Source: Emiliania huxleyi CCMP1516 | Lineage: Eukaryota | Direction of reading: 5' to 3' | Assembly (NCBI RefSeq): GCF_000372725.1 | Contig: NW_005202427.1 | Coordinates: 310,001 to 374,000, forward strand | DNA: 64,000 nt | Shown here: piece by piece, positions 17,056-31,292 of the stretch | Layout of the letters: the number at the start of each line of letters is the position of its first letter | Position numbering within the stretch: position 1 is the first letter of the stretch | Position numbers and translations under genes: made by a program | Notes under the pieces: generated by a model | What the model was told of the DNA's origin: nothing | The model's input: the letters and a program-made list of their open reading frames with translations, nothing else | Databases searched by the model: none

Positions 17056-17402
17056 GTCGCCTCGGTGGTCGGCAGGACGCTCTTTCTGGTCGTTGGAGCG
17101 AGAGGAAGAGAAATCGGAAAGGCACCATCGTAGAGCACTTAAGTGCAAGTGCTCTGTGTCTTGATTTGCCAATAATATACCCCAGACTTGCGTCACTACG
17201 TGCCTCCCCGTCTTTGTTACCTTTCCTTTTGTGCCCCTTTTGTCCCGCTCCCGTGCCCCCGAGTTCATTTTACACAACAGACTTGTTTCTCGTTTGAGTC
17301 TCTCTTCTCGTTTGTGTGGAAGCTTCTCGGCAGCTGCTTCTCGGCCCGCTCCGTCGGCCCCCGGCAATGCTCCGCGCTGTAGTTGGTAGAAGTCCGTCGG
17401 CA

Positions 17403-17963
17403 ATGCTCAGCGCACCAGTCCTACTGTCGAGCCTTCTGCTGCTGCGCGGGTCGGAGGCCTTCTCGCCCGTGGCGGCCAGAGCAGGCGGCGTCGGGAGCCC
17501 GTGCCGCGCTGCTGTACGCCTCGGTTTCTTTGACATGTTCCAAGAGTCGGCCGAGTCCAAGGCGCGCAAGGAGGCGGAGTGGGAGGCGCAGCAAGCCATG
17601 CTTGCGCGGCGCCGCAATCCCGAGGCGATGGAGGCGTACCAGAGCGAGGTGGAGGAGCGCCGCGCGGAGATTTCATCCAAGGACGCAGAGCTGAAGGAGC
17701 TGCAAAAAACGGGAGACATCGAGGCCTGGGAGGCGCTGCGAGCGGAGGGCAAGCTGCAGGGCTCGGACGAGCTCGAGCGCGAGGCCGGCGAGCGCTCGTG
17801 GGGCGGCGAGGGCCTCGTGGCCGAGCGGATAGACACCCGGCTTCCCTTTGTCGACTCGGGGTACGTGGACGAGTCGGCCCCGTCCTTGCCCGACATGCCC
17901 GACCTGCTCGGCGGGCTCAAGGGGCTCTTTGGAGGCGGCGAGGAGAAGAGCGAGCAACAGTGA
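17403..17963 (+). CDS. Probable plastid-targeted protein of unknown function
   Basis: Signal peptide ending in SEA-FSP, an Arg/Ala-rich transit-like stretch, then a charged helical domain (LGFFDMF...ARRRNPE). Alternative ATG at 17367. Confidence 0.65.
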   Translation: MLSAPVLLSSLLLLRGSEAFSPVAARAGGVGSPCRAAVRLGFFDMFQESAESKARKEAEWEAQQAMLARRRNPEAMEAYQSEVEERRAEISSKDAELKELQKTGDIEAWEALRAEGKLQGSDELEREAGERSWGGEGLVAERIDTRLPFVDSGYVDESAPSLPDMPDLLGGLKGLFGGGEEKSEQQ

Positions 17964-19556: not shown

Positions 19557-19627
19557 TGTTAGACCTAAAGGTCGGCGCCGGCAAAAGGTGGCCTAGTTGG
19601 TCGAAGCGCCGACCTTTAGGTCTAACA
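19557..19627. mobile_element. 71-bp micro-element with 22-bp perfect TIRs (TGT...ACA) and 5-bp TSD
   Basis: TGTTAGACCTAAAGGTCGGCGC / GCGCCGACCTTTAGGTCTAACA, flanked by CTCTC on both sides. Confidence 0.75.
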
Positions 19628-19899
19628 CTCTCTTCATGCAACAACCTGCTCCACGAGACCTGAGACCTCCCGCCTCCCCCACAGTCCCCCACCAAGTCGT
19701 ACGCGCTGTCACACGAAGACTGTCATGAGGAAAAGAGTAAAACCGTTACATGATAAAAAAAGGCAAGGAGGTGGGCGCGGTGGGACTAAACAACGGCGTA
19801 TCCACTACATCGTGCGGCCCTACACCTTGGAACCCCTGCTCGTTCACCACTGCCTTCACCTCCCTCTCCTGCTCCTGACGGAGCGATCGGTGCCATCGT

Positions 19900-22800
19900 A
19901 TGGTCTCCAATCTCAGCGAGAGTGACCTCTATAGCTGGCTCCGTTCTCTCGACACTGAGTCGCGCGCTCGGTTGCTACGGTCGCTCTCCACGCTCGAGCA
20001 GCAGCAGCCCAGCGAGCAGCAGCCCAGCAGCAGCAGCGAGCCGCAGTTTGCGGCACAGCCAGCGTGCAGTCAGGACCTCCAGCTGGGAGCCGAGCCTCCG
20101 CCTGAAGCGGGCAGGCCGGCTGGCCCGCTGCAGCCGCCGCCACCGCCGCCGCTCCCGCTTCGAGTGGTGCCGCAAGCGCAGGCGCCGTCCGATGGGGAAG
20201 AGCCTGGGGAGCCGAGCGATGGCCTCCTTCCGCGCAGGGTGCGCTTCGGTGATCGCATTCTCGAGGGAGCCGCCGCCGCGGCAGCCGCCGCCGCCGCAGC
20301 TGCCGCCTCCCTCACTTCATATCGCGGTTCGCCTCCAGAAGGTTCGGCGCCGCCAGAGGACGCGTGCGCCGCGCTAGAGGCCGTCATCGTCGACGTCGAT
20401 CCCGCGGCAGACACGGCTCCCGAGGCTGCGACCGCGGAGGCGGCGCCGCTTGCCGCCCCGGCAGGCTTGCCGCTACCCACGGCGATTCCACCGCTGCCGC
20501 AGCCGGCTTCGCCATTGCAGAGGCCGCCGCTGGTGCCGCCGCCGCCGCCTCCTCCGCCGCCTCCGCAGCCGCAGCCGCAGCAGGGCCAGCCGTCGGGACA
20601 GCAGCAGGGTCAGCCGTGGGGACAGCAGCAGGGGCAGCAGCAAGGGCAGCAGCAAGGGCAGCAGCAAGAGCAGCAGCGGGGGCAGCAGCAAGGGCAGCAG
20701 CAGGGGCAGCAGCAGGGGGTCGAGGCAGAGGGCTCCTCGTCGGAGCCCTCCTGCGCTAGCGCCAGCGGCTGGCTCTCGCAGTCCGCCCCGAGCAGGCTCG
20801 CCCTCGACCGAGGCGCCGGAGGAAGAGGCAGCAGCACGACGATGTCGCAGATGCGGTACCTGGACCCGGCCGACCCCGAGGCGCCGCTGCGCGAGGTGTG
20901 GGGCCCCGTCCCCCGGCCGGTCGACCAGCTGTGGCAGCTCAACAGCTCGGCCGAGCTCGTCCTCTTTGCGCTCACTTGCGTCCTCCACCTCGCTACCATC
21001 TGCGCCGCCGTCGGCCTCGGGTTCGGGCGCGAGGCGGTGCCGGCGCAGGAGGACTACTTCGGGTGCAGCGGCAACATCAGCGGGCTCGTGGGCGAGGAGC
21101 ACGTCGCCGCCGCCGCCGCCGCCGCCGTCGACATGATCCTCTCGCGCGCCCTCCTCGCCGAGGCCTTTCTGATGGCTGCGTGCCTCACCTTCCTCGCCAC
21201 GCGGCGCTGCTCGGCCGCCCTCGCGATGGGCGTGCTCGGGTGACGGGCCACTGCCCCTCTGCGGCGCGCGCCCCGCCCCTCGGCGGTCCACGCCCCTCGC
21301 TGCAACCGTGCAGGTGGCACATCCTGCAGTACACGCCCGCGGCGCTCGCGTCGTCGTCGCACCCAGACGCGCTCTGCGACCTCGTGCTGCGGCGCGAGCG
21401 GGCGGCGCGTGCTCCGGCCAGCGAGGGGTGGTGCTTCACGGCGCTGGCTGTGAGCAGGTGGGAGCTGGTTGCGTACGGAGAGCTCTCCCTCTCCCTCGAC
21501 GGCTACATGTGGGTGCTCACCCTCCTCCCGCTCCTCGCCTCGTGCGTGCTTCTCTCGCTGCTGCTGGTGCGCCTCGCCCACACAACCACTCCTCCGCACA
21601 CGAGCCGCCACCCCTCCCCCCCTGCCCCCTCCCTCGGCCCCCCTGCCTCGCCCGCTCCCCCCCTCCGCCTCAGCCCCCGCGCCCCACCGCTTCCTCCACC
21701 CGCCACACATCAACACACCACACACGCACACGCCCCGCCCGCTCCGCGCCAGGTGCGCCTCCGCGTCGCCAAGGCGACGGAGGCGATGCGCATCGCCGAG
21801 CTGCGACTCCGCTCCTCGTCGCGCGAGTCGCAGCTCTCGGTTCCTTCGTCGACGGTCCGCATGAAGCGCGCCATCCGCACGTCGGACGCGCTCGCCGCCG
21901 CCGACTTTTGCTCGGCGGTCACCGCTTGCTTCACGGCCGCCGCGCCGCTGCTGCTGCCGCAGCTGCCGTCGCTCCGCTGCGAGCAGAGCCTGTACTCGCC
22001 GTCGCACGAGTGCCCCGACGGCGGGAGGGCGGGCGTCGGCCTCTCCCTCGCGCTGGTGCTCGCCTACTACCCCCTCCTCCTTCTCCTCAACGCACGGTTG
22101 CGGGGAGGGTTCGGCGGGGCGAGGCGTCCCATGCCGTTCGGCCGGGTCGCCGTCGCGGTCGCCCTCCTCGCCGCGCTCGGCGCGAGGGCGAGCCTGCTCG
22201 TCCTGCTGCCGGTGACGCTGCTCAACGTGCTCTCCACGGTGCTGCAGGCCCTCTCCGCCGCCGCCACGCTGCACATGTTCCGCTCCGTGCGCGCCGCCTC
22301 GCGCTCGCAGCTGCGCGCGCTGCGGAACATCCGAAACGGCACTTTCCACCCGGTGCCGCTTCGCTTCCAGTCAGTGCTGCGTGTCAAGGACGCGTCCGAC
22401 ATCGAGGCGCTGCTGCGCGGCTGCACCGCCGTCCGCGTCGACGGCGTCGTCGTACGCCGCGTGCCGACCCGGCGCGAGCGCGCCGCGGCGAGCTGCGCGC
22501 GCGTGCGGGCGCGGCTCGGCCAGTCCGCGTGCGGCGGCTGGCTGCTGCGCGTGCCCGCGCGCGTCGGGGAGGCGCTGCTGAGCGCCCTGGGCTGCCTCTG
22601 TTGCTGCTGCCCGACGCCCGTCCGCGCCACCGCCCGCGCCGCCCGCTCCTCCCTCGGCCGGCTGCTCGGCGGCGGGAGGCCCGCACCGCGCGGCGGCGAC
22701 TCCTTCCACAGCAGCGTCGACTCGGAGCAGGGGCTCGGCAGCTCGTCCGAGGGCCGGCGGCGCGGCGCGGCCAAGCCGAGCGAGCTGTCGATCCTCCCGT

Positions 22801-25800
22801 CGAGCGAGCGCCAAGTGCTGGTGCAGCTCTCGTCCGACCTCGCCACGATCAACATCTGCTGCCCCTCGGGCCACCGCGCCGGCGCGCGGCTGCTGCGTGA
22901 CGGGCACGAGGTGGCCGCACCCCTGCCCGGCTCGCCCCGACGCGGCGCCACACAGTCGCACCGACGCTCCACCGGCCACGCCGCCTCGCTCGCAGGTGAT
23001 GCCCTTCCGGCTCGAGTCCGCCTCGCGCGTCACGAGTGCGCTCGCCACGCCCGGCACCACCAGCCCTCGCGTCGCAATCTCCTTCCGCCAGTCGGGCCAG
23101 CTCCCCTCCTTCACCGCGCTCCTCGAGTTCTCCAAGCCGGCCGAGGCCGCGCCGTGGCTCGCGCTGGGCAGGCTGCTCGAGGCGCCGCCCGACGTGCTGC
23201 CGCGGCGGTGGCGCGCCCTCTACCTGCGCGCCTTCACCGCCTCGTGCAGCCAGCCCGCCCTCGGCCTCGTCGTGCCGGTCGAGCTGGACGCCTTCCTCCG
23301 CCGGCTCAACCTCGACCCGCAGGCGGCTCGGCCGCCGCCCTCGGCGCCGCGCGCCCGCACGCCGGGGCCCGTGACACGTCCACCCGCCCTCGACCCGCGC
23401 AGGTGGTCCTGTCGCACGAGCACGACCAGCGCGGGGCGGAGCAGCCGCCGCTCTCCGCGCTGGTCGGCTTCACGCGTGCATGCTCGCTGCTCCGCCCCGT
23501 CGCGCGCTGCCGCCGGCTCGACGACGAGCTGAAGAGCCTCGGGCAGCCGCCGCCGCGATCGCTGAGCAAGGCGGCCGCCCTCCTCGCGCCGGAGGCCCCC
23601 TGCCTCCGTCTCTGAGCACGCCTCGTTGGTTCGCAGGAGGCCTTCCTCAGGCTCATGCGCGCCTTGCGCCGGCCGCTCGGGCCCGCCGACGTGAGGCCGG
23701 ACGCCGCCGAGGTGCCGCCCGAGGGGAGGAGCGCGAGGCGGGAGGCGGGGCGGGAGTGCGCTGCAGCGTGTGTCGCGGTGGCCGTAGGCGGATCGGCGCC
23801 GGAGGTGCGAGCAGGGGCGCCGCACGCTCCCGGACAGCGACGACGAGAGCCGCCGCTCGCTCGGCTCGCGGTATAGCGGCTCCGGCCGCTTCGGCTCGAG
23901 CCGCTTCTCTCTGCTGTGGGAGCGGCCGGAGCAGCACTCTGAGACGCGCGTGGCGCGGGGCGGCTCGCACGAGAACCTCTTCTCGAGCTGGTCGGGGCTC
24001 GGCCGCCGCAGGGCCACCACGGAGCAGGTCAAGTGCAGCTTGGGCCGCGAGGAGATTGACAAGATCGTCAAGCCGGGCGCGACCGAGGCGGAGGCACGCG
24101 GGGCGATCGCGCTTGAGCAAATCCTGAAGAAGGAGCGCTTCACACAGCCGGAGGAGGGCGGCGTCGCTCTGAAGACACGCCGTTTACACCTAGCGCGCTG
24201 TGAGCAGGAGCTCGTCCTCGCGAAGGGCCGCTCCATGTCCTTTACGTCGCACGCGTCCGGCGGCTCGAGCGACGAGGAGCTCGACGAGTCGTCAAAGCTG
24301 AGCGAGAGGACGGAATCAGTGGCCTCGAGGAGCGGCGAGGCGTCGCGGTCGGCCGAGCGGCGCGAGAGGGCCGGCCTGGCAGGCATGATCGGTGCGTCCC
24401 TCCGGTCGCTGGTCCCGCCCCTCTCGCCGGCCAAGCCTGCGGCGCCGCGGCGGCAGCGGTCGCACGACGGCGCGGCGGCCGAGATTGCACTCGCTGACAT
24501 CGCGGAGGCGGCGCCGGCGCCGGCGAGGCCGCCGACGCGGGTCGCTCCTCCCCGGAGGCAGCGGTCGTACGACTCAGTCGCGGGCGGGCTGACCTCCAGC
24601 CTCCCTCTCGTCGTCAGCCGCCACCGCCGGCAGGCGTCCGACTCCGACCTGTGCGGCAGCGGCGGGAGCGAGGGACACCGCGGGCTCGCGGGGAGCGGCA
24701 CAGCCCCGCGGCGGCACCAGCGGCAGCTCTCGTGGAACGCCCCCCTGCGGCGGCTGGGGCACCCCGGGGGAGGCACCCCGCCGCAGCTCGAGGTGCAGCT
24801 CCCGGGAGAGAGCCTTGCGCGGCGCCGCTCGTCGGAGCTGTCCGCTTCTCTGCCCGATGGCGGGCGGGCCCAGGCCCTCTTCGGCGCCGTGACCGCCATA
24901 CAGTCCTTTCGCTCGCGCATCCGCGTGAGCCAGCTCTCGCCCGAGCAGGCCCGCGGGTCGGACACCGGCTCGGCGCTCAGCGCGCACGGCCACCGGCGGG
25001 CCAGGCCGCGGGGCCAGGCGACGGCGGTGGCGCGGGCCGGTCAGGAGGGGGACGCGGAGGCGCGCGCCGCGTTCGAGGCGTACGCTACGCGGGTCAACGG
25101 GGCGCTCCGCCTCTCCCGCGACGAGCTGCTCGGCGTCGTGTCGGACCCGGAGCTCAACGGCGCGGTGCACCCGCGCGAGAGCGCCGTGTGGCACGACATG
25201 ACCCAGCCGCTCTCGTCGTACCTCATCTTCACGTCGCACAACACGTACCTCGTCGGAGAGCAGGCGAGACACAGCCGAGGTCTAGCCGAGAGGTGGCCCT
25301 CGGAGCATTGTCCCTCGAAGCTGACCCATCCGTCCACCCCCGCCCCCTCTCGCCGCGCCCCGGACTTATTGGAGCGCGCGACCCAGCACGCGTGCCACGG
25401 CCCCCGGCACGGCATCAACCCCCCCCCCCTCTCCCGCTCTCCCCCTCACCCCAGGTCGTGGGCCTCTCCCTCGCCGCCGCCTACTCGCGCGCCATCGCAA
25501 TGGGCTGCCGCTGCGTCGAGCTCGACTGCTGGGACGGCGGAGCGCCCTCGTATGAGCCGATCCTGACGCACGGCAAGACGCTCACCTCCAACATCAAGGC
25601 GCGCGACGCGATCGCCACCATCGCCGCGGCGTACGAGGCGCTGCCTCCCGCCGCGCGCACGCCGCTCGTGCTGTCGCTCGAGATGCACTGCACGCCGCCG
25701 CAGCAAGTCAAGCTCGCCGAGCTCTTCAAGGCGGCGCTCGGGGAGCGGCTGCTCCCGCCGGGCGACGGCGTGCTGCGCTCGCCCCTCGAGCTGATGGGCC

Positions 25801-28461
25801 GCATCCTCCTCAAGGGGCGGGTCGTCCCCACCACCCACCCCGCCTTCAAGGGCTCCTCCGCCGCCGCCGCGCTGCCGCCGCGGCCCGCCGCGCAGGGCTC
25901 GTCCGAGGACGCCGCCCCCGCGGCGTGCGACGCGCACGCGTCGGTGCGCCAGCTCTCAAACGTCTTTGCGCCGCAGCGGTCCGAGTCGGGGCTCAGCATC
26001 GGGTCGCTGCAGCGCGGCGAGTCGAGCAGTTCCAACGGGACGGCCGCCGGCTCGGCTGCCGGCTCGCTGCAGCGCGCCGACTCGAAGGCCTCCGTCGCCG
26101 GCTCGCTGCAGCGAGGCGAGTCGGCCGGCTCGGTCGCCGCCTCGCTGCCGCGCGACGAGTCGAGGGACTCGGTCGTGGGCCCGCTGCAGCGAGGCGAGTC
26201 GGCGCCGGTGATCGGCTCGCTGCAGCGAGGCGAGTCCACCAGCTCGGTCTACTCCGACTACTCCGTCGGCACGGCCGCGTGCTCCAACTACTCGGGCACG
26301 ACCGCCGACTCGCCGCGCCACCGCGACGGCTCGCCCGAGCGCCGGGCCGCAGCAGCGGGGGTGGGCGACGGCAAGCGGCGGCCGCGGAGGCCGCGGCCGC
26401 GCGGCGCGTCTCGCGTGTGCAGCAAGGCGTCTGCGGCCCTCTCCTACCTCTCCACGGCGGGCCGCTCGGCGGCGGGCGGCGGCGGCAGCGGCAGCACGGT
26501 GCACTCGGGCCGGCTGAGCATGGTCTCCTTCGACGACGCTGCGCCGGTGAGCCGGAGCTTCTTTGTGCAGCTCCGCTCGTGCGACGGCGCCCGGCCGCAG
26601 CTGTGGCTCCACGGCGAGCGGCGGGCCGAGCTTGCTGCCGGCGGGCAGGCCGCCCCCCCCGAGGGCGAGCAGCAGGAGGCCGGCCCGCGGGGCGACGCCA
26701 AGGGCGGCGGGCTGCCGGAGACTGCCGACGCGCTGCTGTCGGAGGTGTCTGCCGTCGGCCCGCTCCCGTCGGGCCCGGCCGCCGCGGTGGCCGCCGCCGC
26801 GGCCGCCGTCGAGGAGCAGCCCGAGCTGCTCGAGGTGACGACGCAGGCGACGGCGAGCGGCCGCCACCTCAGCGTCGTCTACCTCGACGACGCGGCGAGT
26901 GGGCGGGCCGAGGAGAACGCCGAGCCGGCCGGCGGCGCCACAGCGAGTGGGTCGAGCGCGCCGCGGTTCCTAGACGCGGTCGGGTCAAAGCACTGCGTGT
27001 TTGAGGCCCCGAGCGAGGCGGCGGCGGCCGAGTGGGCCGCGGTCATCAACGACGAGCTCTGGCGTTCGGAGCAGTTCAAAGGGCTCAACCGCGACCGCAT
27101 CTCGCCCGACCTGTCCGAGATCACCCACCTCGCTTCGCGCAAGCTGGCCGCCGCGCCGGGCCACACGTGGCAGCCGACGCAGATGTGCTCCATCAACGAG
27201 CGCGAGGCGACCCGGCTGCTGCGCGAGCTCGACTCGGAGCAGATCGTCTCGATCAACCGGACGCGCCTCTGCCGCGTCTACCCGCACTACTCGCGCTACG
27301 CGAGCGACAATGTGCGCGTCCGCCGCCGCACACGCAGCGCCGCCGCACATGCAGTGCCGCCGCGTTGCCGCCACGCGTGCGCCGGCCCCGCTGCGGCTCC
27401 ATCCCCCCCTACCCCTCCCCTCCCCCTCCACTCTCCCCTCGCGGCAGGTCGAGCCGGAGCTCTTCGCCAACCTGTCCGCCTCCGGCTTCCAGATGGTCGC
27501 CCTCAACCTTCAGACCCCCGACGACGCCTTCGTCTACGCCTCCGCGCTCTTCAGCCAGAATGGCGGCTGCGGCTACCTGCTCGCTCCGCCGCGCTCCACC
27601 GGCCTCGCGCTGCGCGTCTCGCTGCTCTCGGCGCGCCACGTGCCAAAGGTTGGCGAGGGGCGCGTGGCCGAGCCGCCTCCTCCGTGGCACGGCAGCGTGC
27701 CGCGGCTCGACACAAAGAGCGAGCCGCCCTCCGGCGCCACGGAGGCTGCGGACGTGTACGTCACGATGCAGGTCATCGGGCCGGGCTTCTGCTGCGCCGT
27801 CAACCGCAGCGTCGCCGAGGGGCCGGGCGAGGCGGCAGACACCGACGCCGTCGCGAGGCTGAGGGGCCTGCAGCGGTGCGTGTGGCGCTCCTCGACCGTG
27901 CTCGGCAACGGCTTCAACGCCGAGTGGGGTGTCGCGCACGCGGACGAGGAGGGGCGCGCGGGCGCGGGCGGCGCGCCGCGCGCTGCCGCGGCCGAGGAGG
28001 CCGAGGTGCTCGCGTCTCGGCCCGAGCTGTCCGTGCTGCGTGTGTGCGTGTGGTCCGCGTCGTCGGCGCCCCTCAGCGCCTCCAACGGAGTGCCGGCCGA
28101 GTGGCTCGCGCCGTCGACCCTGCCGAGCCTTAAGGAGGTGGCGCAGAGCTCGGACACGCTGCTGGCGTACGCCGCCGTGCCGCTGCTCTCGCTGCGCGGC
28201 GGCGTGCGCGCCCTGAAGATGATGCACCCGAGGGGCGAGCCGATCGAGCTGTGCTCCGTCCTCTGCGACATCTCCCTCGCCGACGACGCCGTCCCCTTTG
28301 ACGACCTCTCGGGGGCGGGGTCGACCCCGCCGAGCGCGCTCGTCCCGGCGCGAAGTGGCAAATCGCTCCTGCGCAAGTTCATCATGCGCAGGGGCACATC
28401 GTCATCCACGTTATCGTCCTGCTCCGGTGGAGCAGCGGTCGCTCCTGCCGCCGAGGCTTGA
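19900..28461 (+). CDS. PLC: Very large phosphoinositide-specific phospholipase C (X, Y, C2) preceded by low-complexity, multi-TM and PH/EF-like regions; many introns
   Basis: X box DMTQPLSSYLIFTSHNTYLVGEQ, GCRCVELDCWDG, PILTHGKTLT, PLVLSLEMHC, SPLELMGRILLKG. Y box LCRVYP..SDN, GFQMVALNLQT, FSQNGGCGYLL. C2 NGFNAEW, PELSVLR. The PLC part (about 25100-28461) is secure; continuity with 19900-25100 rests on inferred splice sites. Confidence 0.8.
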
Positions 28462-28559
28462 GCTTGTCTGTAGTCTACGTATCCGACTCTCCTGCATATT
28501 TCGGGTTCGCATGGTGTGTGTGTGTGATAGAAAATAACATTAGGTCTCTAAACTGCCGA

Positions 28560-29997
28560 ACGTGGTGACAAAGACCGTCATGGGAGCGCGGGTGCGGCAG
28601 CAGCGAGCAGGCGGGGGTGCCACACGGAGCGCACCACGAGAGGATCATGCGGGGAGAGGCGGGGAAAGAGACCCCGGGCGCCGCCACGAGGAGCGAACTC
28701 AGGGGCTGCCTCGTCTGTAAGGCCGCGAGGGACGCGGCGAGGAGGGCGGCACTAAAGCGAGACCCGCTGTGTCCAGTCGCGCGGAAAGCCGCGCAGCAAT
28801 GGACCGAGGAAGATGAGAACCCGCCTAGGGCGACAATGGCGCACTTGCTTAGCGGCGCCTGCCTGGGGAATAGGGAGCAGGCCAGATGGTTCCTCAGAGT
28901 AGCGCGAGCGCAGACGGGGACGGCGATCAGCAAAGTAGCCCAGGCGGCACCCGACTCCAAGGATACGCTGAAGACGCTGAGGAAAGCGCATGTCGCTGCG
29001 CTGAAGGGCTCACGCTATAGGGTGCTGGATGAGGACGGGTACGATGCACTAGCCCCAGCCGTCGGGGGGGTGTTGCCGGCGCTGGTAGATGATCTCTCGG
29101 AGAAGAGCCGGAGGGACCTTGGCGCCGGGGTCACGAGGAACTTGCAAGTCGTGGCCGAGGCGGCGACGGGAGCGGTGCAGAGGTGGATCCAGCTCAATGA
29201 TGAGGCTACGGCGCGCATAATGAAGAGAGAGGAACACATCGAGTGGCTGAGGAAGCTCTTCACTGGGTGGAAGGAGGCTCGGCCGACCTTGAGGGAGTCG
29301 CGGAGGAGGAGGGATAACGGAGGTAACGTGCAGACAGGCCAGCAGCCAGTGGGACGAACGAGGGCCGCGACGGCGGCTCAAGCGGGAGGGAGCGGAGACG
29401 GTGGGCAGCGAGCGAAGTGGGTGAGACTGATGATGCTCCTTCGACTTAGGGAGCGGTGCAGCTGCTGGGCGGGCTTCAGGCTGGTGCTCACGCGAAAAGG
29501 AATCGACGCGATGTACAAAGCATACAAGAAGAGGAGAAAGAAGAGGACGGACATCAGTGATGACGAAACAGAAGCTAGCGCAGACGAGGGCAGGGCAGAC
29601 CCGGGGACGGCGGAGTCGGAGCAGACGGCATCGGCCGCCGAGGAAACGTTGGGAAGAGGCACGAGGAGGGCGGCGACCTCGACCGACTATGGAGGACCCG
29701 TCGCCAGACGACGCAGGGCAGAAGACGGTGAGGCGGAGCAGACGCGCAGGGCGAGACGAGGGAGGGAGCAGGATGTTGCTGAGATCAGCAGGAGGATGTA
29801 CGACGAGATTAGGAGCAGCAGGGACCCGAGGGACCATGTGGAAGACGGCTAGTGCTAGTCCCCCATCGGGAGGACGACCCCGGCTAGTCGCCGACCACAC
29901 CCACAAAGAACCCTGCACAAAGACCGCAGGGCGGGGACTTGTTCCTTTTCCCCATCTCCTAGTAGAGGTGTCCGTTTTATTTATTTATTTATTTAGC
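28560..29997 (+). mobile_element. 5'-truncated non-LTR retrotransposon 3' end (ORF 28617-29852 plus UTR and (TTTA)n tail)
   Basis: Purine-rich intronless ORF with CLVC...ATMAHLLSGAC (C-terminal CCHC-like). UTR motif at about 29863-29920 recurs inverted at about 36799-36856. GAGGTGTCCGTTTTATTTATT tail recurs inverted at about 39938-39960. Confidence 0.65.
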
Positions 29998-30023: not shown

Positions 30024-30475
30024 CGCGTTTGTTCACGTAATCGTAAACGCACAACCCCGGGCCCGAAATCGCACAGAGTCACGCAACTCTGGGTCCCAGG
30101 CGCCAGGGAAGGCGAGCAAAAACCTTATCGCGCGCGCTAGACGCCGACTCGGAGGCCGCACCGGTCAGGCGCGCAGCCGGAGAGAGAGGGAGGCGCTCAA
30201 TCGCCGCACGCGGCGAGCGCCTCCATCCATCATCTCCGCCTCATACGCACCCTCCACCCCCGCGCCCGCGCCTGTAGCGTCCGTGCGCGCGAGGATGGCC
30301 TCGCCGGGTGGTGCGGCCGCAGCAGCTATGGCAGCAACCGCAACAGAGGCAGCAGCAGCGGCAGAAGTGTTCACGCGTTTGTTCACGTAAACGCACAACC
30401 CCGGACCTGAAATCGCACAGAGTCACGCAACACGGGGTCCCAGGGAAGGCGAGCAAAAACCTCGCGTTTGTTCAC
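30024..30475. repeat. ~100-bp imperfect direct repeat pair
   Basis: CGCGTTTGTTCACGTAA..ACGCACAACCCCGG..GAAATCGCACAGAGTCACGCAAC..CAGGGAAGGCGAGCAAAAACCT at about 30024-30125 and 30374-30462. Confidence 0.85.
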
Positions 30476-30599
30476 AGCTCAAGAGAGTCAAAAAACTTGC
30501 GTTATCGGGGCCGGCTGCACACAGCGGAGTCTCTCGCTGAAATCAACCCCTCAGAGCTCGCATTCCGGTCAATTTAAACCCACGCGCCTTTCTCAACCA

Positions 30600-31292
30600 A
30601 TGGCCCTCCGCACGGCGCGTGCTCCTGTTGGGTGGCTGCCGTACTCGCCCGTGGCATTCGCAACCGCGGTGGTGCTGATTAACGCCGCCGTTCGCCTCAC
30701 TGAGAGCGGCGGCCTCGAGCTGCGGCCGTTATCTGGCGCTGCTGCCATGCTGTCATCTCCGCCGATGCTCTGCTGTGCAGCCGCCGTAGCAGCTGGATGC
30801 TCTTGGGCCTGCCGCGCACAGCTCCCGCGAGTCGACCGGCTGGCAGCGATCTGGCACCTTGTGAACGCGACCTTCTTCTTCTTTGGGTGCGACGTGATGA
30901 GCGGCTTGTTTGGCGTCGTGCCGGCGATGTCGGAGCAGTACCTGACGATGGACCGGCGGCATGAACGGCGCAGGCACGAGCTCGACGCGATGTACTGGGC
31001 CGAACTCGCCGTCCACATCCCCTTCTCGGCGGCCGTCTTTTACGGCTACGTCTCCCGGTCCGCGTGGACGCCGCTGCTGGAGTCCTTCCTCGGAGGCGTG
31101 ACTCTCCTTGGCACTCTGGCATACTACGTGCCCGAGCTTCTCACCGGAGGGCACAACTGGCTCCCGGGCGCGGTCGGGGTCGCCACCACCGCCCTAGGCG
31201 GGGTCTGGATCGCGGTGCCTCTCTGCCTGCTGGCGCGATCGGTCCGGCAGGGCGGCGGCGGCTCCGCCGGCGAGTCGTGGAGGGCGAGGTGA
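30600..31292 (+). CDS. EBP/EXPERA-family (emopamil-binding, sterol isomerase-like) membrane protein
   Basis: Multi-TM ORF with RLAAIWHLVNA, EQYLTMDRR, WAELAVHIP, LLGTLAYYVPE and GVWIAVP. Confidence 0.7.
   Translation: MALRTARAPVGWLPYSPVAFATAVVLINAAVRLTESGGLELRPLSGAAAMLSSPPMLCCAAAVAAGCSWACRAQLPRVDRLAAIWHLVNATFFFFGCDVMSGLFGVVPAMSEQYLTMDRRHERRRHELDAMYWAELAVHIPFSAAVFYGYVSRSAWTPLLESFLGGVTLLGTLAYYVPELLTGGHNWLPGAVGVATTALGGVWIAVPLCLLARSVRQGGGGSAGESWRAR

Follow-up and report, generated by a model that had tools for sequence, protein, structure and literature searches.

Canonical phosphoinositide-specific phospholipases C (PI-PLCs) are soluble peripheral enzymes, and they are seen as being activated when G proteins, kinases or Ca2+ recruit them to the membrane. 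For a PLC that is already part of the membrane some other switch is required, and an attached membrane bundle is the obvious candidate. Here we describe a gene with this layout on the forward strand of a 64,000-nucleotide stretch of Emiliania huxleyi CCMP1516 (contig NW_005202427.1, positions 310,001 to 374,000; hereafter the window, in whose own numbering all positions are given), in which a predicted eight-helix membrane bundle precedes a PI-PLC in a single open frame.

The word "transmembrane" occurs 0 times in a 2025 review of mammalian PI-PLCs (PMC12195575), passages of a survey of PI-PLCs from oomycetes and other members of the stramenopile, alveolate and rhizarian (SAR) group report EF, PH and C2 additions only (PMC9694693), and a short paper on algal PI-PLC signalling contains 0 occurrences of either "transmembrane" or "haptophyte" (PMC4122161). 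A search of the open-access literature, judged by titles and the starts of abstracts and with subscription papers and supplements outside its scope, returned no description of a multi-pass PI-PLC, and nothing was found there on haptophyte inositol trisphosphate receptors together with PLC. N-terminal multi-pass domains fused to a cytosolic signalling enzyme in one chain are known from the bigrams of G protein-coupled receptors (GPCRs), the types of which, in the accessible parts of the two sources, are GPCR-PIPK, -INPP, -AC, -PDE, -TKL and AP-GPCR, with no PLC among them (PMC5784254, PMC6033456). A second described layout is that of the enzyme rhodopsins, such as Rh-PDE of Salpingoeca rosetta, which are reported to have eight helices, both termini in the cytosol and a C-terminal enzyme behind a linker (PMC7644710). 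The membrane-bundle-PI-PLC architecture reported here is real and conserved, and it is apparently undescribed.

A spliced gene joining a membrane region to a PI-PLC

The membrane region and the PLC form one spliced, transcribed gene with one open frame, and the fusion is real. A first model, built from the sequence only, comprised 9 exons and 8 introns with one stop; the GC content over 20001-28000 is 74-78%. Contigs were mapped from 8 of 17 runs, with 15 of the 17 containing the stretch and the spliced runs covering 77-78% of its words; X1 and X2 are recorded as RNA, the 5 other spliced runs are presumed to be RNA and show the same joints, and the unspliced run X14 was used as a DNA control. 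The joints in the RNA contigs reproduced all 8 predicted introns and added two more (21392-21457, GC-AG, and 24133-24207, GA-AG), giving the 10-intron model of Table 1. All ten joints are seen in 6 of the 7 spliced runs and nine of the ten in the remaining one (X12), with 0 of 10 in X14. Two single contigs from two different studies bridge the membrane and PLC parts, namely record 15 of X6 (6985 nt), which runs from upstream of TM1 (the first transmembrane, TM, helix) to 28556, and record 10 of X7 (6391 nt), which runs from about 21101 to 28503, and the coordinates of their pieces agree with the 10-intron model to the base. These contigs confirm the proposal, made in a preliminary description of the locus from its letters alone, that the two parts share one transcript. 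That description had named a polyA site near 23615 as a sign of separate transcripts, a refutation that fails because the stop at 23613-23615 lies within the spliced intron 23571-23636.

The introns that had been proposed to join all the reading frames are therefore seen as RNA joints, but not all are of the GT-AG or GC-AG type that was expected, the ten donors comprising 5 GT, 4 GC and 1 GA. Together with the GC content, the GC and GA donors suggest a haptophyte host such as Emiliania, although a literature search for a link between such donors and this alga found no paper. The unusual intron, 24133-24207 (75 nt), has its joint in 6 of the 7 spliced runs and is best read as GA-AG; the joint can slide over 7 positions, of which only GA-AG and CG-AG have an AG end, and the GA is also present in the metagenome contig L001. 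This contig is 99.4% identical over 8975 bases, with the same order of parts, 0 exonic indels and 20 of 20 splice dinucleotides unchanged, and its differences amount to 21 substitutions in 1035 intron bases versus 12 changed codons among 2470 examined. The assigned start at 19900 is the sole ATG within 19780-19902.

The X box matches PI-PLC-X (PF00388) with 90.4 bits against a cut-off of 23.1 (E 1e-25), and the Y box matches PI-PLC-Y (PF00387) with 28.7 and 37.2 bits on two exons against a cut-off of 28.8 (E 3.9e-9). Searched against the PDB, the X-Y exon hits 23 PLC sequences with E <= 1.4e-15, PLC-delta1 ranking first (E 7.8e-24); the segment 25050-25263 alone gave no PDB match. Both catalytic histidine motifs reported previously are present, SHNTY at 25234 and THGKT at 25566, which place the histidines at 25237 and 25569. 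For the headgroup-binding residues Lys438, Lys440, Ser522, Arg549 and Tyr551, 4 of 5 are identical, with Arg in place of Lys440, and those of the Y box are Ser 27189, Arg 27273 and Tyr 27279. The Ca2+ ligands, numbered Asn312, Glu341, Asp343 and Glu390 in the mammalian review (PMC12195575), correspond to Asn 25240, Glu 25518, Asp 25524 and Glu 25680. The two histidines and four Ca2+ ligands are thus all present by motif (6/6), with those of the X box that follow the intron also aligning to PLC-delta1, and of the 11 residues for catalysis or substrate binding that were checked by motif, 10 are identical, the exception being a Lys to Arg change. Judged by these residues, the PLC active site is intact, and the catalytic core places the predicted product among the eukaryotic PI-PLCs.

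The remaining domains of the soluble part are less distinct, and of the PH-like, EF-like, X, Y and C2 domains first proposed it is X and Y that are borne out by Pfam and PDB matches, with the other three weakly supported. No PH, EF-hand or C2 match was found by Pfam in the gene product. In the second AlphaFold model of the relative P0008, residues 528-615 show a strand-strand-helix pattern in the PH-like region (predicted local distance difference test score, pLDDT, of about 60-69 over residues 571-620), and PH, FERM and PTB folds lead its Foldseek list, none of them significantly (E >= 0.07). The EF-like region weakly matches the EF-hand protein CML18 at E 0.74, and the C2-like region contains the weak PLC-gamma1 stretch listed in Table 1. 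The PH-like insert carries a cysteine cluster at 22593-22610, where the relatives have two or three cysteines, and this may be an acylation site. In the X-Y linker the six repeats are 8 residues long, end in R-x-x-S and lie in a 39-bp tandem array; they are possible phosphorylation sites that would control autoinhibition. A second split PH domain at 26544-27089 of the same linker, considered by eye from strand-like segments and a Trp-bearing helix, was rejected as having neither Pfam nor PDB support.

Table 1. Features of the gene and its predicted product, in window coordinates.
Feature	Position (strand)	Remarks
Whole gene, final model	19900..28461 (+)	11 exons, 2508 aa, one open frame with one stop
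Exons 1-11	19900-21239, 21314-21391, 21458-21566, 21753-22910, 22996-23322, 23403-23570, 23637-23711, 23788-24132, 24208-25263, 25455-27311, 27448-28461 (+)	
RNA contig 5' ends	19789-19943 by run; upstream part 19789..19899 (+)	contig ends, not a fixed true start
N-terminal Pro/Gln/Ala-rich low-complexity region, ~345 aa, predicted cytosolic	19900..20934 (+)	maximum hydropathy -0.22 in first 60 aa
Eight predicted membrane helices	20953..22271 (+)	hydropathy, alignment with two relatives, low-confidence AlphaFold models
TM1, TM2, TM3, TM4	20953-21015, 21124-21186, 21202-21338, 21504-21566 (+)	
TM5, TM6, TM7, TM8	21882-21950, 22032-22091, 22137-22193, 22203-22271 (+)	
Basic juxtamembrane linker, TM8 to first PH-like strands	22272..22420 (+)	58% and 65% identity to P0008 and P0004, 48/48 residues, without long gaps
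PH-like domain, predicted split by ~115-aa insert	22400..23180 (+)	boundaries approximate
EF-hand-like helices	23190..23711 (+)	61% and 66% identity to relatives
Low-complexity basic insert, ~385 aa, before last EF-like segment	23788..25040 (+)	insert of similar size and place in P0008, 31% identity
PI-PLC X box	25198..25820 (+)	split by intron 25264-25454
X-Y linker, ~425 aa	25830..27100 (+)	six R-x-x-S-bearing repeats at 26001-26237
PI-PLC Y box	27168..27591 (+)	split by intron 27312-27447
C2-like domain with inserts	27600..28290 (+)	weak stretch aligned to C-terminal part of PLC-gamma1 and PLC-epsilon1

The predicted membrane bundle and its relatives

At a Kyte-Doolittle 19-mer threshold of >= 1.6, six segments fall in residues 346-690 compared with one in the remaining 2163. 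When the whole protein was shuffled 500 times, no 345-aa window ever held six or more such segments, the maximum being 3. The multi-pass bundle seen at first is thereby upheld, with its count, given then as 7-8 hydrophobic segments, now put at eight and not seven. The eight aligned segments have hydropathies of 1.1-2.7 here and 1.4-2.7 in the two relatives described below, TM3 and TM5 being the least hydrophobic, and the helix limits were set by hand. With an alternating topology and the N-terminus inside, the ratio of Lys plus Arg in inside and outside loops is 22/4, 21/4 and 21/3 in the three sequences, and sequons are located in loop 1-2 in two of them. No hydrophobic signal peptide was found in the first 60 residues. 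The bundle predicted on this basis crosses the membrane eight times and has both of its ends on the cytosolic side, with a long cytosolic loop separating TM4 from TM5.

The relatives were obtained by using the frame 21315-22910 as the query in a full HMMER scan that covered 1.84 billion representatives and gave 5 matches, two of them near-copies of the gene. P0008 (1189 aa), the longer cluster mate of P0003, contains in one open frame the eight helices, the PH-like and EF-like parts, the long insert and the X box from its beginning up to the first catalytic histidine, with 49% identity over 135 aa (E 1e-34) at this last end. P0004 (731 aa) reaches from the helices as far as the first EF-like segment. 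The sequences P0005, P0009 and P0010 are fragments, and a search among shorter proteins gave 2 PH/EF fragments. No full-length relative with a complete PLC was seen, and word-based searches among longer proteins, which are weak tests, found none. Compared across the sequences, the fusion is conserved in the divergent relative P0008.

Conservation is uneven along the bundle. The part from TM5 to TM8 with its cytosolic loop is 49% (P0008) and 44% (P0004) identical, as high as the PH-like part (46% and 43%), and by hand count 30 of 88 positions are invariant in all three sequences in the four segments predicted to be cytosolic (three loops plus the 25 residues that follow TM8), compared with 11 of 99 in the outer loops. 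Polar invariant residues within the helices are H363, E421, H449, D554, D560, Y615, N622, R654 and Q674, and TM5 is amphipathic with two invariant Asp. Only 2 of 11 cysteines in the membrane domain are conserved, both inside helices. The cysteine-containing loops that had been pointed out as a GPCR-like sign do not hold up, as the outer-loop Cys 389, 468, 585 and 596 are absent from both relatives (4/4).

Searches for the identity of the bundle gave no family. Pfam returned no family match at E up to 10 and no GPCR, ion-channel, transporter or rhodopsin profile, a PDB sequence search with the bundle profile gave 0 matches at E up to 10, and an internal repeat of TM1-4 against TM5-8 was not found by hhalign (probability 0.1%). 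AlphaFold models of P0008 place eight long helices at matching positions with low confidence (first model pLDDT 47, predicted template-modelling score 0.33), and Foldseek with both low-confidence models gave 0 matches at E <= 0.001 and generic helical bundles only. The best VIA Z of the separate searches was 9.6 (cornichon, root-mean-square deviation 3.7, 133 aligned), 9.0 and 8.3, a range that is uninformative for helical models. In the ESM Atlas, the top match for the P0008 bundle was TMEM117 (PF15113), reported to be an eight-pass protein (PMC10398655) and in this like the predicted bundle, with a score of 0.77 that is below what shuffled proteins often reach; nothing usable was obtained there with P0004, and TMEM117 had no Pfam match at E up to 10, making it a weak lead only. 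On these comparisons, the bundle appears to be an unclassified membrane family.

What the bundle may do

We lean towards the bundle being a built-in regulator of the PLC rather than a plain anchor. With both of its ends predicted to face the cytosol, TM8 would lead through the short conserved basic linker directly into the PH-like domain of a PH-EF-X-Y-C2 core, and in solved PLCs the PH domain packs on the catalytic core. The enzyme would be permanently located at its lipid substrate, so that recruitment, the usual on-switch of a PLC, could not be its control, and the bundle would be likely to gate it. In such a mechanism the long X-Y linker would hold the enzyme off until the bundle changed, on meeting a ligand within the membrane or on a shift in a property of the membrane itself, such as its lipid composition, tension or voltage, stimuli that the poorly conserved outer loops would favour over a soluble extracellular ligand; the conserved cytosolic loops together with the TM8-PH linker would relay the change and so release the enzyme, yielding diacylglycerol and an inositol phosphate, with Ca2+ release as a putative further step. 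The fuller version of this proposal, which we put forward tentatively as a real possibility short of a probable one, is a one-component receptor-PLC, in which an undescribed eight-helix sensor family is wired directly to a PI-PLC, produces lipid second messengers with neither a G protein nor a kinase in between, and is kept in several marine algal lineages. The receptor-like PLC first suggested is supported as regards the single transcript, the open frame, the bundle, the intact active site and the conserved fusion, but not as regards kinship with GPCRs.

Several points weigh against a regulatory bundle. The evidence for one transcript consists of short-read contigs, with a single bridging record in 2 of the 7 spliced runs and pieces in the other five; none of the listed contigs joins the first 345 residues to TM1, because the repeat at 20520-20591 was left out of the mapping; in the DNA this part has an open frame. 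Directly downstream of TM8, within three consecutive A, an X12 contig (depth 16) has a one-base deletion at 22334 that may be an error or a broken allele and that would put the PLC out of frame. The conservation is based on three sequences, of which the X box is reached by one relative cluster only (P0003/P0008), with P0004 stopping within the EF part. The quality of the AlphaFold models is poor (mean pLDDT 47 and 41.5), and no ligand, fold or family can be assigned to the bundle. Finally, the outer loops are variable among the three sequences and the identity over TM1-4 is 27% (P0008) and 33% (P0004), which together argue against a conserved extracellular binding site.

This last point, together with the lack of a receptor family match, also favours the alternative that survives best, in which the fusion is real and the role of the bundle is limited to anchoring, targeting or oligomerising the enzyme in one membrane, with control left to Ca2+, partners or phosphorylation of the X-Y linker, whose six R-x-x-S repeats would offer a separate control point. 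We consider this rather unlikely, if well worth keeping in view, as anchoring would not require as many as eight helices, polar residues that are invariant within them, or conservation of the TM8-PH linker. Improbable, in our estimate, is a bundle that is active in its own right, by conducting ions or lipids, by scrambling or by presenting substrate, in a way that is coupled to PLC turnover: the buried polar and charged invariant residues and the amphipathic TM5 with its two Asp speak for it, but Pfam shows no channel or transporter family and the two halves are not repeats of one another. A voltage-sensor-like or 4+4 repeat identity was discarded for the same lack of an internal repeat and of an ion-channel match.

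Slightly less probable again is a reading of the bundle as a GPCR or opsin-like domain that has diverged strongly and carries one additional helix, which would make the protein a receptor like a GPCR-bigram or an enzyme rhodopsin. GPCR-PIPK fusions are reported from haptophytes (PMC5784254), and eight helices with both ends inside, the topology predicted here, is that reported for the enzyme rhodopsins (PMC7644710). Against this, TM7 and TM8 have 0 lysines in all three sequences, the loop cysteines are unconserved and the cytosolic loop between TM4 and TM5 is long, and an identity as a rhodopsin was rejected for the absence of the retinal lysine. The preliminary description had implied GPCR kinship; eight predicted helices with both ends cytosolic argue against a seven-helix GPCR, and the searches matched neither a GPCR family nor a GPCR fold, the fold models being poor. 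A pair of separate genes, or else an artefact of read-through or assembly, would account for the transcript coming in several contigs in 5 of the 7 runs and for the one-base gap, but can be set aside as very improbable given the two bridging contigs from two studies, the spliced, frame-keeping intron in each gap between parts, the same order in L001 and the single open frame of P0008.

A regulatory bundle would place a direct membrane-to-lipase coupling in one polypeptide, where it is testable, and P0008 provides an intron-free natural relative for expressing the membrane part.

Neighbouring sequence and comparison with described systems

About 270 bases upstream of the ATG lies a perfect 22-bp inverted repeat with a 27-bp spacer (19557-19627), present as a single copy in the window. 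The contig depth of X14 is about 18,400 in the bin of this repeat, which also holds a CT repeat, versus about 40 over the gene, and this suggests a high-copy miniature element. Further upstream, an open reading frame (ORF) at 17361-17960 (+) matches DUF6823 (E 1.3e-23). Directly after the gene is an ORF of about 420 aa (28587-29852, +) with no Pfam family above cut-off, the many variant letters and uneven depth of which in the mapped runs suggest a repeated element, and it is followed by an ORF at 30450-31289 (+) that matches EXPERA/EBP (E 1.2e-5).

The gene adds a PLC to the short list of protist signalling enzymes fused to multi-pass domains, which includes kinases, phosphatases, cyclases and phosphodiesterases. 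With the eukaryotic PI-PLCs, in particular the delta-type core (PDB 1qas and 1djg) and also the beta, gamma, epsilon and zeta types, the predicted product shares the X and Y boxes, the catalytic histidine pair and the Ca2+ ligands, as well as the order PH-EF-X-Y-C2, the PH, EF and C2 parts of which are weakly supported here; unlike them, it has a predicted eight-helix domain before the PH-like domain and long inserts in the PH, EF and X-Y regions. With the GPCR-bigrams it shares an N-terminal multi-pass domain on a cytosolic signalling enzyme, but those have seven helices and an N-terminus outside, whereas eight helices and an N-terminus inside are predicted here and no GPCR profile matches. 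In the case of the enzyme rhodopsins, the helix number, the position of both termini and the C-terminal enzyme behind a linker are as predicted here, but the bundle has no retinal-binding lysine in its last helices and no rhodopsin profile match, and the enzyme is a lipase. If the proposed regulation holds, the protein would work in the manner of a GPCR-bigram or an enzyme rhodopsin, while differing from the first in its predicted topology and from the second in the missing lysine.

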